A DNA stretch of 64,000 nucleotides from an uncultured delta proteobacterium (GTDB lineage Bacteria; Desulfobacterota; Binatia; Binatales; Binataceae): NCBI GenBank assembly GCA_963814715.1, contig CAWFDW010000001.1, positions 910,184 through 974,183 on the forward strand. Direction: 5' to 3'. The translations under genes and the position numbers were made by a program. Below are positions 49,318-62,743 of the stretch, one piece after another (within the stretch, counting starts at the first letter, position 1; every line of letters starts with the position of its first letter). The notes under the pieces were generated by a model that saw only the letters and a list, made by a program, of their open reading frames with translations, was not told where the DNA came from and made no database searches.

Positions 49318-49803
49318 TCAACGGTCATCAATCAAATAATCTCGATAGCACGCATAGAGGCTGGTATCATCCTTGAGTTGATCCAAAATCCAATTCCAGA
49401 GTGCCACGTGCACATCACCAGGCGCAGCTTGATGGACGACTCCGTTCAAGAATTGGATGTGCTGTCGGATCACATTGTCGAAGCTGAGAACGCCTGAGCG
49501 AAAGTCATCGTCACCGACTTCCGGGGCGAAACTACTAGACATCAGGCCATAGTCGGCGGTCTGGTCGTAAGGCGCAACGCCGCGAATGTGACCCTTGATT
49601 GCCCCAAGAAACCAGTCGAAGGTTTTGTCGGGAGGGAGGCCCCCAGCGGTTTGCTGAACGTTGTAGAAATCCCGACTGACGTAGTCGTCGCGGTTGTTAG
49701 GGTCGAGAATTTTGTTGAGCATGCACTGAGTGTGCTTTTGTTCGTCAGTGCTACCGTCGAGGAGGCTGAGCCCTCGGCGTGTGCGATCTTCCCACTCTGC
49801 CAT
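49318..49803 (-). CDS. hypothetical protein (161 aa), downstream partner of the pore-former-like gene
   Basis: Start set at MAEWEDR, with AAGGAGG 8 nt upstream. No signal peptide and no recognisable motif. Low-GC codon usage like its upstream neighbour. Confidence 0.65.
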   Translation of the reverse strand: MAEWEDRTRRGLSLLDGSTDEQKHTQCMLNKILDPNNRDDYVSRDFYNVQQTAGGLPPDKTFDWFLGAIKGHIRGVAPYDQTADYGLMSSSFAPEVGDDDFRSGVLSFDNVIRQHIQFLNGVVHQAAPGDVHVALWNWILDQLKDDTSLYACYRDYLIDDR

Positions 49804-49950
49804 GGTGGATACCTCCTTTCCCGAGCCTATGTTGACTTTTGTCCAGCTTAACGCCAAGAGCTACAAGCTAAGTCAGGTAAAATAGTAACCAAACTGGACG
49901 AGCATTTTGAAACAAAAGAACGAGTCTCTGAAATGCTGCCCTGAGCTCTT

Positions 49951-50562
49951 CTACTGGTCGCTCTGAGGTTTTTCAGGAAACGTCAGGGCCAAAATGAGTC
50001 CATCCTTTATGGAACCAGAGTCGGATAACACGTAACGATAAGTTTTTCCATCCTTCTCATACTCAGATATATAGTCGGCACGGAGTTGCCATACCTGGAG
50101 AGTCGTTTGCGGCATCACAACGACGGACAAGGACTCGGTTTTGCTCTCGGAGAGAGCGACGCTATGGGTTTCGGTCTTGCTAAATGTTGCGGTCAATGCT
50201 GCAGTAATCGCAGGCAGAGCACCGCCGCTGACTCCCAGTTGGAGACCGAAAGTCGTAGCATCTGAATCGGTCGTGGTTATTCCGCTTGTAAAACTCACCG
50301 AATCAGTGATCTGACTCTCCTGGGCCATTCTGTTATAGAGAGTGTCCCAGTAGCATTGTAGAGTAAGCGTACCCCAGATGAGTTCGTTGGCCGGCTCTTC
50401 TCCCATGACAACCTGCATGGTGACCGGCTCGGTATAGACAAATTCATTGTCAACCTGACTGATGACCTGTACGGGTGTGGGATGAGAGGTGAAGCTTCCC
50501 TGTTCCGAAGGTCCATCAGGTGCGGCAATCGAGTAGCCTTGATATTGAATTATCATTGGCAT
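49951..50562 (-). CDS. small aerolysin / ETX-MTX2-like beta-pore-forming toxin candidate
   Basis: AGGAG lies 8 nt upstream of the ATG. Ser/Thr-rich strands flank a perfectly alternating amphipathic hairpin TTFGLQLGVSGGALPAITAALTATFS (aa 103-128). The protein is beta-rich and has no signal peptide. Confidence 0.6.
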   Translation of the reverse strand: MPMIIQYQGYSIAAPDGPSEQGSFTSHPTPVQVISQVDNEFVYTEPVTMQVVMGEEPANELIWGTLTLQCYWDTLYNRMAQESQITDSVSFTSGITTTDSDATTFGLQLGVSGGALPAITAALTATFSKTETHSVALSESKTESLSVVVMPQTTLQVWQLRADYISEYEKDGKTYRYVLSDSGSIKDGLILALTFPEKPQSDQ

Positions 50563-60926: not shown

Positions 60927-60967
60927 CTCAAACGTCTCTAAGTCATCAAGTTTCTTGTTCGACTGTC

Positions 60968-62743
60968 TTATGGGTTTGGCGCGGGAGCGGCATCAACACA
61001 ATTCCAGCTGCCGTCGAATCGGGCGATTTGGACTGCGCCGTTGATCGCGCGAAAACTCACTGCCGCATTTCCAGCCTCATCGACATAGGCAGTCGGATCG
61101 GAGGCCGCGTCGGGACATACCACACGCGTAGCCCAGGTTCCCGCATCGTCGAAGATTTCATTTATCGTACCGTCAAGTGAGCGATAGACGATGTGTATCG
61201 TAGAGGCGACGACCGCCGATGGATTGCCGATGCAAACTGGAGCGTTGGTCGCCGAAGTCAGATTCGTTGCGTTCAAGCTGTCGCGTTCGATCTGCCAGAT
61301 TTCTCCGCGGAGCGCGCGGAAAATGATGCGCGGTGCCTGGCCGCTCGCAGCATAGGCAGCCGGCCGGAAGGTCGCCGCTGGAATTGCACCTGCGCCAGTT
61401 GAGCCGGCGGACAAATCCGTCGGCGCAGCGCTGCCCGCGGACGCCGTCAGATCGATCAAATGACCATCATCGCCGGCCCGCGAAACGATATGGAGGGCGC
61501 CCTCATGGACGTAAGCGACGGCGCTTCCCGAGGTCACCTTGCCGGTGGAGTCTTTCAGATTTTCCGGACTCCACGTCCCACCTGCGAGCGTCATATGGAC
61601 CTGATTGTCGTATTCATCCCAATAGACCACGTGGACATCGTTACCGAGCACCGTGATGAACGGGTCGCCGATCGCGACGCCGCCGGTGATGTCGGATAGC
61701 GACCACGCCCCACCGGCAACCGGACGCGCGATTGCATAAATGTGATCGTCGGTCGCGCGATAGACGATCACCTGCTCATTGCCACCACAGATCGCGGCGG
61801 GATCGCCGGCTGCCAATGGCATATCGGAAATGGTGGAAAGGTCTTCCTCCTGCCACGCGCCGGCGTCGAATTTGAGCAGATGGAGGCTGCCATCGGGATT
61901 CGCATACGCGATGAAACTGAGATTGCCAACGCGGTGGGGAGCGGTTCGCCCCAAGTCGGCCATCGCGCGCAGAACATGGATGCCGCCGTGAGTTACATCG
62001 AAGTCAATGTCGTAAGCGGTGAAGCCGTGACTATTCATCATCGCGGCCGGAGTGAAAGGCGTGTACTGCCAGATGAACCATGACCTTCCAACCCACGGCC
62101 CCGGGATATTGGCCGCGAGCGGATTATGAGTTTCGCGAACGTTATAACGCGCGTCGCCAGCCGCCGTCGCCGCATTTCTGAAGGCCGGCGTAAGCGGGTT
62201 CGGTGGATTGTCCAAATCGATCCCGTTGAAGACGCGGGGAGTATAAGACTTTACCCACAGCGGATAGTCGCCGAAATGAGCGACATCATTGGCCGCGTAG
62301 TCCCTTTTGCCGGAGAGATGACCCCACGCGCTGGCGCTGGTGTAAATAATCGGTGAGCGCCCGAGCCTGGTTTCCACGGTGTCGAGGAACGCTTCGAGTT
62401 CCTGGCGCCAGTCGGCGGCGGTGGCGGGTTCGTGCTGCGCCGGAGCGAGCGCACTGTTTTCAAAATCCATCGCCGGCGGCAGATCGCCTGGACCCAGTCG
62501 CCGCAGCGCCGCGACCATCAAGTCGGCTTGCACGTCACCGGAATCGGCGTCGGTATGGCGATAGTAATGATAGGCGCCACGGATGATTCCATTGGCCCGG
62601 GTATCCGTCCAACGATTGGGGAATTGAGCGTCGGGTTGATAGTTACTTTCGGTACATTTGTGAATGATGAAGGTAATGCCGGCGGCGCGGAGGTCGTCCC
62701 ACGAAGGCAGAGGGTTCGGTCCGTAAACGTCGATGCCATCCAT
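60968..62743 (-). CDS. GH25 muramidase (lysozyme) fused to a 7-bladed lectin-like beta-propeller
   Basis: GGAGG lies 5 nt upstream. GIDVYG...AGITFIIHKCTES...GIIRGAYHYY...AMDFE is GH25-like. Seven repeats of h-h-[YF]-R-x-x-x-G-x-[IL]...G-x-W follow. No signal peptide. Confidence 0.85.
   Translation of the reverse strand: MDGIDVYGPNPLPSWDDLRAAGITFIIHKCTESNYQPDAQFPNRWTDTRANGIIRGAYHYYRHTDADSGDVQADLMVAALRRLGPGDLPPAMDFENSALAPAQHEPATAADWRQELEAFLDTVETRLGRSPIIYTSASAWGHLSGKRDYAANDVAHFGDYPLWVKSYTPRVFNGIDLDNPPNPLTPAFRNAATAAGDARYNVRETHNPLAANIPGPWVGRSWFIWQYTPFTPAAMMNSHGFTAYDIDFDVTHGGIHVLRAMADLGRTAPHRVGNLSFIAYANPDGSLHLLKFDAGAWQEEDLSTISDMPLAAGDPAAICGGNEQVIVYRATDDHIYAIARPVAGGAWSLSDITGGVAIGDPFITVLGNDVHVVYWDEYDNQVHMTLAGGTWSPENLKDSTGKVTSGSAVAYVHEGALHIVSRAGDDGHLIDLTASAGSAAPTDLSAGSTGAGAIPAATFRPAAYAASGQAPRIIFRALRGEIWQIERDSLNATNLTSATNAPVCIGNPSAVVASTIHIVYRSLDGTINEIFDDAGTWATRVVCPDAASDPTAYVDEAGNAAVSFRAINGAVQIARFDGSWNCVDAAPAPNP

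Follow-up and report, generated by a model that had tools for sequence, protein, structure and literature searches.

The window analysed here is a stretch of 64,000 nucleotides from an uncultured member of the Binataceae (GenBank assembly GCA_963814715.1, contig CAWFDW010000001.1, positions 910,184–974,183 of the forward strand). The contig is 1.17 Mb long, and housekeeping proteins group with those of Candidatus Binatus. A first-pass annotation, made from the sequence alone, had listed eight open reading frames (ORFs) between 49.3 and 62.7 kb and proposed that together they release a new multi-component toxin. All eight ORFs were recovered with the same coordinates. Each is under purifying selection (ratio of non-synonymous to synonymous substitution rates, dN/dS, 0.04–0.30 against a ~94%-identical relative, contigs L061 and L063), and they are real genes. 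Two of them, P1 and P2, form the core of an undescribed, horizontally mobile module, in which a pair of coupled, signal-less, beta-rich proteins is accompanied by interchangeable envelope-degrading partners. The two core genes, with protein lengths in amino acids (aa), are:

56716 to 58737, + strand: P1, 673 aa, the conserved core protein, soluble and beta-rich
58734 to 60926, + strand: P2, 730 aa, the invariant partner of P1

A Shine-Dalgarno sequence (AAGGAG) lies 8 nt upstream of the P1 start codon, and the start of P2 overlaps the P1 stop codon as ATGA, so that the two genes are predicted to be translationally coupled. Compared with the same relative, dN/dS was 0.05 for P1 and 0.26 for P2. 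Neither protein matched an entry in Pfam, NCBIfam, PADLOC or PHROGs, or in the Protein Data Bank (PDB) in single-sequence and profile searches. Both had been called orphans, a label that has to be dropped: a word-indexed search returned 286 homologues of P1 and 103 of P2, all unannotated ('hypothetical') and without Pfam domains, and P1 accounts for 270 clusters at 50% identity among 1.84 billion representatives. P1 and P2 are not paralogues of each other (hhalign probability 1%). A phage origin of P1 was ruled out, with no match in INPHARED or IMG/VR.

The structures of both proteins were predicted with AlphaFold2 (AF2), giving predicted local distance difference test (pLDDT) values of 78 for P1 and 80 for P2. 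In the P1 model, the N-terminal module (about residues 1–400) has strands of 24–38 residues and a single helix of 27 residues, and Ig-like sandwiches make up the C-terminal part. P2 was modelled with a disordered N-terminus (1–43), an N-domain, a disordered Pro-rich linker (215–276) and a body of beta-sandwich domains. The full-length models were used as Foldseek queries, P1 and P2 against the PDB and P1 also against the viral structure set BFVD. No structural analogue of either protein was found in these searches, only generic matches to Ig, FN3, pilin and alpha-2-macroglobulin folds with template modelling scores (TM-scores) of at most 0.34. The best matches of P1 were Bacteroidetes adhesin/type-V-pilin-like proteins and Gram-positive pilins (probability up to 0.96; TM-score ≤0.34). 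As library and structure searches gave no match, the pair stands outside any well-characterised family, including the non-toxin families that could have accounted for it.

P1 carries a variable insertion rich in Pro, Ala, Ser and Thr after residue 173, within a loop of low pLDDT. An insertion of this composition was present at the same spot in 16 of 50 homologues, reaching about 55–70 residues, and the spot directly precedes an invariant Gly-rich segment (PWFI.AQGTG.GSIEASG). In the models, this loop and the Pro-rich linker of P2 are candidate cleavage sites. Distant relatives of P1 have the N-terminal module alone in common; ten of them were without a Pfam domain, and no informative P1 fusion was found among them. 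In Nocardia and Bradyrhizobium loci (L048, 14180-15271; L051; L052; L057), a third gene of about 360–390 aa follows P2. In Nocardia its product is paralogous to residues 10–397 of P1, the N-terminal half, which is therefore a separable module.

A genome scan yielded 52 P1 loci, from Binataceae, Verrucomicrobiota, Rudaea, Collimonas, Bryobacterales, Acidobacteriaceae, Flavisolibacter, Eremiobacterota, Chloroflexia, one cyanobacterium, Microvirga, Bradyrhizobium and many Actinomycetota; an additional Chitinophaga locus had been found before the scan. P2 lies directly 3' of P1 in 47 of 53 non-redundant loci. The pair was found in Binatia, Verrucomicrobiota, Bacteroidota, Acidobacteriota, Eremiobacterota, Chloroflexota, Cyanobacteriota, Actinomycetota and alpha-, beta- and gamma-Proteobacteria, and thus appears to recur in about ten phyla, mostly among soil bacteria. 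P1 identity across phyla is 40–91%, and in locus L001 (3264-13338) the module is flanked by two rve_3 insertion sequence (IS) genes in opposite orientation. These two findings indicate that the P1–P2 module has probably spread horizontally, and in L001 it looks like a composite transposon. On the Binataceae contigs, P1 and a P2 split into 145 + 584 aa share the module with a CHAP-like protein, a homologue of the 161-aa gene of the window and a protein of 186 aa whose N-terminus is hydrophobic.

A deeper branch of the family came to light through a tblastn match on a Deinococcus taeanensis plasmid. Here, a P1-like gene of 781 aa is followed by one of 1079 aa, a match to the P2 profile at E = 5e-10, and by a third gene annotated as 'caspase family protein', with a terminal PG_binding_1 domain. 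The plasmid genes bear the locus tags LAJ19_RS14985, RS14980 and RS14975. A metagenome scan with distant relatives added 22 further loci, with P1-like and P2-like proteins of up to about 960 and 1230 aa, respectively. In all nine loci that reach past the P2-like gene (the Deinococcus locus included), the order is P1-like, P2-like, protease; six of the proteases belong to family C14 and three to S8. Proteases of both families carry one to three copies of the same undescribed domain of ~110 aa, and some end in PG_binding_1. The catalytic module is thus swapped and the ~110-aa domain kept. Motifs of this domain are ..YY.VE.A.., ..FY.SW.. and ..LYYR..T.., and proteases that contain it are encoded at:

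L065, 14763 to 16367
L071, 14013 to 16808
L074, 9370 to 12813
L078, 8388 to 10055
L082, 6698 to 9847

By analogy, a swappable catalytic module combined with a constant recognition domain and a constant non-enzymatic partner is the signature of protease–effector modules. Judged from these gene orders, the most constant partner of the superfamily appears to be a protease and not a muramidase. Since this constancy holds in nine of nine loci, the role of a protease-licensed effector would fit P1 and P2 at least as well as that of a cargo.

To survey the neighbourhood in the window's own branch, ORFs were called in all 53 loci and clustered, and cluster representatives were annotated. At least one of the following was found in 31 loci: a signal-less peptidoglycan hydrolase, a homologue of the window's 288-aa membrane protein (hereafter the 3-TM protein, for three transmembrane segments), a protease (S8, C14 or C70), a GH75-like protein or a patatin. 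Nearly all of these accessory genes lie within 5 kb of P1–P2, mostly on the same strand. Peptidoglycan hydrolases are present in about 13 loci and represent at least six families (GH25, GH73, Amidase_2, CHAP, PG_binding_1-X and Rv2525c-like+TIG). S8 subtilases occur in 11 loci at distances of 0.3–2.1 kb from the pair, nine of them upstream of P1 and two downstream of P2; C14 caspase-like proteases occur in three and C70 papain-like proteases in at least three. In total, a protease gene adjoins the pair in about 16 of the 53 loci, and none is linked to it in the window itself. Homologues of the 3-TM protein were found in seven other loci and patatins in two, and GH75-like proteins are also present. 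No signal peptide could be recognised in the accessory enzymes, in monoderms and diderms alike. The first-pass annotation had suggested looking for co-localisation elsewhere, and it was found: in several phyla, P1/P2 homologues adjoin GH25 genes (L007, L010, L013), other signal-less hydrolases and membrane-protein homologues.

Within single loci, accessory proteins can share an N-terminal leader (L007, 14322-16454; L004, 8981-17481; L010, 8564-15815; L035, 9102-18901). In Flavisolibacter, the leader reads MK..[WF][FI].Y.P[DG][DG], continues into an acidic Thr/Asp-rich linker and is found on three consecutive proteins (a 153-aa protein, a C70 peptidase and a GH25 protein). Acidic low-complexity leaders of the 'DD.DDQQT' type occur on five or six proteins in Verrucomicrobia loci, and the membrane protein, the GH75-like protein and the amidase are without them. 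The leaders may be targeting sequences or pro-peptides. Patatin+DUF3376 proteins far larger than the patatin of the window are encoded directly 3' of P2 in two Actinomycetota loci (L041, L060). Downstream of P1–P2 in Nocardia loci (L047-L052, about 15.3–17.9 kb) and in one Eremiobacterota locus (L054, 15060-16886), a gene for an ABC-F-type double ATPase is accompanied by small proteins. PADLOC matches in this region are strong yet generic (mad3, mad8, AriA, mad1). The defence system that the mad3, mad8 and AriA matches seemed to place near the Nocardia copies was rejected, the genes in question encoding the ABC-F-type double ATPase and a small helix-turn-helix protein. These are probably an antibiotic-resistance-type ABC-F protein and its regulator rather than a defence system.

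Set against this survey, the window's six remaining genes fall into accessories and passengers:

60968 to 62743, − strand: GH25 muramidase (assigned by Pfam GH25), 591 aa, without a signal peptide, convergent with P2
50793 to 51761, + strand: PG_binding_1 hydrolase, 322 aa, without a signal peptide
51880 to 52746, + strand: membrane protein, 288 aa, the 3-TM protein (assigned by hydropathy)
49318 to 49803, − strand: soluble protein, 161 aa, an accessory of the Binatia version of the module; relatives favour the 161-aa start
49951 to 50562, − strand: candidate aerolysin-family pore former, 203 aa, a passenger
52813 to 56190, − strand: protein of 1125 aa (assessed by hydropathy), a passenger

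N-termini and transmembrane segments were assessed by hydropathy and by reading the translations. Neither approach revealed an N-terminal hydrophobic segment in P1, P2 or the 161-, 203-, 322- and 591-aa proteins, in line with the earlier statement that the glycosidases, the pore-former candidate, P1 and P2 are signal-less. Scans of all eight proteins against Pfam, NCBIfam, PADLOC and PHROGs named nothing beyond PG_binding_1, GH25 and phrog_30036, and the two Pfam domains predicted by the first-pass annotation were thereby verified. The GH25 domain spans residues 4–168 of the 591-aa protein (Pfam E = 3e-27), which also matched endolysin PHROGs. The protein has GIDVY at its start and MDFEN at about residue 92, which we take to be the GH25 catalytic motifs (N-terminal Asp and D-x-E). 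Its C-terminus forms a repeat domain of roughly 340 aa; the putative propeller of the first-pass annotation corresponds to this repeat pattern, recognised by eye and by regular expression. The P1–P2–GH25 synteny is kept in L061 at 94% nucleotide identity, and GH25 genes adjoin P1–P2 in Flavisolibacter, in a Verrucomicrobia metagenome-assembled genome and in Collimonas.

In the 322-aa protein, a PG_binding_1 domain (residues 12–67; Pfam E = 7.6e-19) is followed by an endolysin-type domain (residues 86–322) that matches phrog_30036 (E = 3e-27) and Thermus-phage peptidoglycan-binding proteins (33–37% identity), giving the protein a predicted endolysin-type architecture. Its earlier designation as GH46-like was not borne out: the sole chitosanase match was weak (PDB, E = 0.22) and no Pfam GH46 match was found. 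Beside it lies the 288-aa gene, for which relatives favour the 288-aa start. The protein has two to three transmembrane segments (at about 8–43 and 172–196, plus a weaker C-terminal one) and is much larger than known holins. Seven further non-redundant loci, from Verrucomicrobiota, Bacteroidota, Gammaproteobacteria and Eremiobacterota, have a homologue (26–37% identity) downstream of P1–P2, in most cases next to a hydrolase gene; in Rudaea (L012, L017) and Flavisolibacter (L007) the neighbour is a PG_binding_1 protein. No Pfam, PHROG or phage-genome match was found for the 288-aa protein, and a phage origin was ruled out on the last of these grounds. It is a candidate membrane-lesion (holin-like) partner of the hydrolases. 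The 161-aa gene (dN/dS 0.04) has a 53%-identical homologue directly 3' of P2 in Binataceae loci L001–L003. By their recurrence, the GH25 gene, the PG_binding_1 hydrolase, the 3-TM protein and the 161-aa gene can be assigned to the recurrent accessory set.

The two other genes are best regarded as passengers. A family profile of the 203-aa protein, built from 20 homologues, had five matches in the PDB, all to the aerolysin family and all below significance (E 0.032–2.4), among them natterin-like Dln1 (0.032), lysenin (0.19) and parasporin-2 (2.4). The alignment shows an alternating Ser/Thr-rich, hairpin-like segment at about residues 95–135, and no Pfam match was found. The description of this protein as aerolysin-like is therefore no more than suggestive: every profile match agrees with it and none is significant. 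Its homologues elsewhere are solitary genes in unrelated contexts, and none lies in a P1–P2 locus outside the near-identical relative. The 1125-aa protein begins with a signal-like segment and combines a large periplasmic part with about six transmembrane segments; it matched no family, nor any PDB entry by single sequence or profile, and its gene accompanies the module in the near-identical relative L063 only. The proposal that the eight genes form one module thus fails at these two genes, which keep company with P1–P2 in that relative alone.

The stretch is a mosaic island and not one eight-gene system. Against a GC background of 0.584 ± 0.025, computed per gene over 32 genes, low values were obtained for the 161-aa gene (0.531), the 203-aa gene (0.502), P1 (0.529) and P2 (0.520), with z between -2 and -3. 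The 322-aa gene (0.564) and the 288-aa membrane gene (0.550) are intermediate, and the 1125-aa (0.581) and GH25 (0.600) genes lie at background, in line with the first-pass annotation, which had judged the GH25 gene and much of the 1125-aa gene to be closer to core composition. Its picture of a partly low-GC mosaic stands for the four low-GC genes; the compositional break itself is modest, and weaker in GC at third codon positions (GC3) than in GC. No Rfam element was found within 48–64 kb and no tRNA gene in the window, and promoter and terminator scans gave counts that did not exceed shuffle expectation. The variable island appears to span from about 48.6–49.3 kb to about 62.9 kb, because a second Binatia contig (L062) has only the patatin gene (46605-48554) in common with the window, and because the similarity of L061 to the window stops at 62905, beside a transposase remnant. 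Features at its edges are:

43585 to 46098, − strand: Kelch / choice-of-anchor-D protein, 837 aa, just left of the island
46614 to 48110, − strand: signal-less patatin-like phospholipase, just left of the island and kept in the island-less relative L062
62930 to 63045, + strand: C-terminal, frameshifted remnant of an rve-type transposase (assigned by translation), at the right island edge

Across the frameshift, the translation at 62.93–63.04 kb reads EHYNESRPHTS / GYVPSREFAQLAAG, presumably the C-terminal motif of rve-type transposases. A remnant had been reported at this place; the translation bears it out, and a Pfam scan of the region gave no match. An imperfect 20-nt direct repeat (85% identity) lies near both inferred borders, at 48647-48666 and 62970-62989, and its right copy falls within the remnant (encoding ..SRPHT..). 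The repeat may be due to chance or may mark a second degraded IS end. Beyond the right border, a single 225-aa ORF (63305-63982, − strand) combines an HATPase_c segment (residues 4–99) with a Bac_DnaA_C helix-turn-helix (134–198). It represents an unusual fusion or, alternatively, two fragments of genes that became joined at the border of the island.

Because the recurrent partners of P1–P2 are proteases or wall-opening enzymes and a membrane protein, all without export signals, we tentatively read the locus as a programmed self-lysis cassette, an explanation that we hold to be a real possibility rather than the probable answer. P1 and P2 would be made as a latent cytoplasmic pair, each with its N-terminal domain linked to the body by a disordered linker. 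A trigger would then license the pair; in most relatives, we infer, this could be cleavage by the adjacent caspase-, subtilisin- or papain-like protease, and in the window, where no protease is linked, another trigger would have to act. Activated P1–P2 would damage the cytoplasmic membrane, a step in which the 3-TM protein may assist at this locus. Through the damaged membrane, the signal-less GH25-repeat protein and the PG_binding_1 endolysin-type enzyme could reach the wall and dissolve it. Such a cassette could serve either abortive infection against phages or an altruistic release of cell contents. In its widest form, the proposal is that P1–P2 represents a new superfamily of large, two-component, protease-licensed, membrane-disrupting effectors with their own protease-recognition domain, spread horizontally through at least ten phyla, one branch of which has become an endolysin-coupled, chromosomal, phage-independent lysis machine; we regard this wider claim as doubtful.

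A number of observations weigh against self-lysis. The window is without a linked protease and 22 of the 53 loci are without any recognised accessory enzyme; licensing by cleavage therefore cannot be general. Hydropathy revealed no hydrophobic or obviously amphipathic insertion segment in P1 or P2, and Foldseek no structural similarity to pore formers. In the window, the hydrolase and 3-TM gene pair is 4–5 kb away from P1, with the antisense 1125-aa passenger in between. Most P1–P2 surroundings consist of ordinary metabolic genes, not defence islands, and PADLOC matches among 118 operon neighbours reflect generic ABC-ATPase, subtilase and caspase similarity. The family is restricted to soil-type taxa and absent from phage and viral collections. 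Finally, proximal genes supplied the seeds of the census, and the measured enrichment of lytic enzymes is therefore biased upwards.

The main rival, and a strong one, takes P1–P2 for a new toxin, binary or multi-component, that acts on protists, nematodes, fungi or other bacteria, with a type-10-like release in which the 3-TM protein is the holin analogue, the GH25 and PG_binding_1 hydrolases open the wall and the proteases are pro-toxin convertases; we consider it somewhat unlikely. Large signal-less proteins beside signal-less muramidases and a membrane protein recall the release of Tc toxins and of TcdA/B, and this part of the earlier proposal of a holin/endolysin-type release persists, as signal-less hydrolases beside a membrane protein do recur. 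As to the other components, the 288-aa protein is a candidate holin analogue with no recognisable holin homology, and family scans of the eight genes turned up no spanin, for which no dedicated search was made. A pair that is complete by itself in many loci is expected of a toxin, the soil-restricted hosts include the fungus-associated Collimonas and Chitinophaga, and the layout of N-domain, linker and body would suit proteolytic activation of a pro-toxin. The leaders common to accessory enzymes in Verrucomicrobia and Flavisolibacter look as if they belonged to co-targeted cargo. However, P1 and P2 resemble no toxin family or fold, and nothing in the data identifies the two as the toxins that had been hypothesised. 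P1, with its dN/dS of 0.05 and 40–91% identity across phyla, is far more conserved than is usual for receptor-binding toxins. A strict link to cytoplasmic proteases of the caspase-like type, with a recognition domain of their own, is seen more typically in cell-death modules than in toxin maturation. The aerolysin-like gene on the island, with a patatin gene nearby, might seem to speak for a toxin locus, but it is an unlinked passenger.

Two further explanations are less likely. P1–P2 could form a carrier or shell, or else a structure of Ig-like domains that spans the envelope or sits on the cell surface. The hydrolases and proteases would then be its cargo, or would remodel the wall locally and mature the structure, much as dedicated lytic transglycosylases serve pili, flagella and secretion systems. 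Interchangeable hydrolase families are typical of enzymes dedicated to wall remodelling. P2 is a string of beta-sandwich domains, accessory enzymes have common N-terminal leaders, and adhesin/type-V-pilin-like proteins and Gram-positive pilins are the best Foldseek matches of P1, but these are generic Ig-fold matches with very low TM-scores. As no signal peptide, sortase signal, lipobox or secretion ATPase is linked to the pair, and the module is unchanged between monoderms and diderms, we regard such a structure as improbable. We give less credence still to the idea that there is no functional unit at all, and that unrelated, horizontally acquired genes have piled up by chance in a recombination-prone, IS-rich region, recurrent neighbours merely sharing residence in variable islands. 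The region is indeed plastic: the related Binatia contig L062 shares only the patatin gene, a transposase remnant marks the right edge, the genes of the window are spread over both strands, a passenger separates the hydrolase pair from P1, and the 203- and 1125-aa genes are unlinked elsewhere. Chance is hard to reconcile with same-strand linkage, usually within 5 kb, to the same functional classes in unrelated phyla, with the strict order in nine of nine deep-branch loci, and with the recurrence of homologues of four window accessory genes beside P1–P2 elsewhere.

The main value of the locus lies in the P1–P2 superfamily and its coupling to proteases and wall hydrolases. Were P1–P2 a lysis or cell-death effector pair, it would be a structurally new executioner beside gasdermins, Pepco, EACC1 and holins, and would tie protease-gated death modules to wall degradation of the endolysin type. 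Were it a lysis-released toxin, it would found a new protein-toxin family and extend type-10-like release beyond enterobacteria and clostridia into soil phyla, including the Binatia, Eremiobacterota and Acidobacteriota lineages found here, for which metagenome-assembled genomes are the main source of knowledge. The small module has several cultured hosts (Deinococcus taeanensis, Collimonas sp. PA-H2, Chitinophaga polysaccharea, Streptomyces hesseae, Kitasatospora mediocidica and Bradyrhizobium manausense), and its function is therefore directly testable.

Among known systems, protease–effector death modules are established, and proteases fused to peptidoglycan-binding domains are known from them (PMC12642450). 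Like P1–P2, the gasdermin, Pepco and EACC1 modules place a non-enzymatic effector beside a protease, swap C14 and S8 catalytic domains and keep the accessory domain; some of their proteases are likewise fused to peptidoglycan-binding domains, and all components are cytoplasmic (PMC12642450). Their distribution is also patchy, horizontally transferred and enriched in Actinomycetota, Cyanobacteriota and Chloroflexota (PMC12642450). In contrast to these modules, P1–P2 consists of two large proteins that show no homology to gasdermin, Pepco or EACC1 and match no model in PADLOC; comparison with known effector families gave no PADLOC, Pfam, NCBIfam or PDB match, and no Foldseek match to gasdermins or pore formers. 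P1–P2 loci are also without STAND, NLR or other known sensors and without a defence-island context, and the window copy has hydrolases in place of the protease.

Type 10 secretion, as in Serratia ChiWXYZ, Yersinia Tc toxins, Clostridioides difficile TcdE/TcdL and Salmonella TtsA, shares with P1–P2 loci the signal-less hydrolases and membrane protein beside large signal-less proteins, and the interchangeability of hydrolase families. The window itself encodes signal-less, endolysin-type peptidoglycan hydrolases (GH25 and PG_binding_1). P1–P2 loci differ in having no holin homologue, and no spanin turned up in the family scans, nor was a lipoprotein/type-II membrane protein pair noticed among the ORFs, spanins not having been the object of a dedicated search. 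The linked membrane protein, of 288–400 aa, is unrelated to known holins or phage proteins; the putative cargo has no toxin homology, monoderms are included, and proteases are the more constant partner. Beta-pore-forming toxins of the aerolysin family and of the anthrax PA / C2-II type differ in that P1 and P2 match none of them in sequence or fold, and have no recognised amphipathic Ser/Thr hairpin and no secretion signal. They resemble P1–P2 in being soluble, beta-rich and two-component, with an N-domain and a flexible linker as a possible cleavage site. The P1–P2 family is thus new, in the sense of having no match in Pfam, NCBIfam, PADLOC, PHROGs, the PDB or BFVD, and its operating logic would, by analogy, resemble that of protease–effector, holin–endolysin and type 10 secretion systems.

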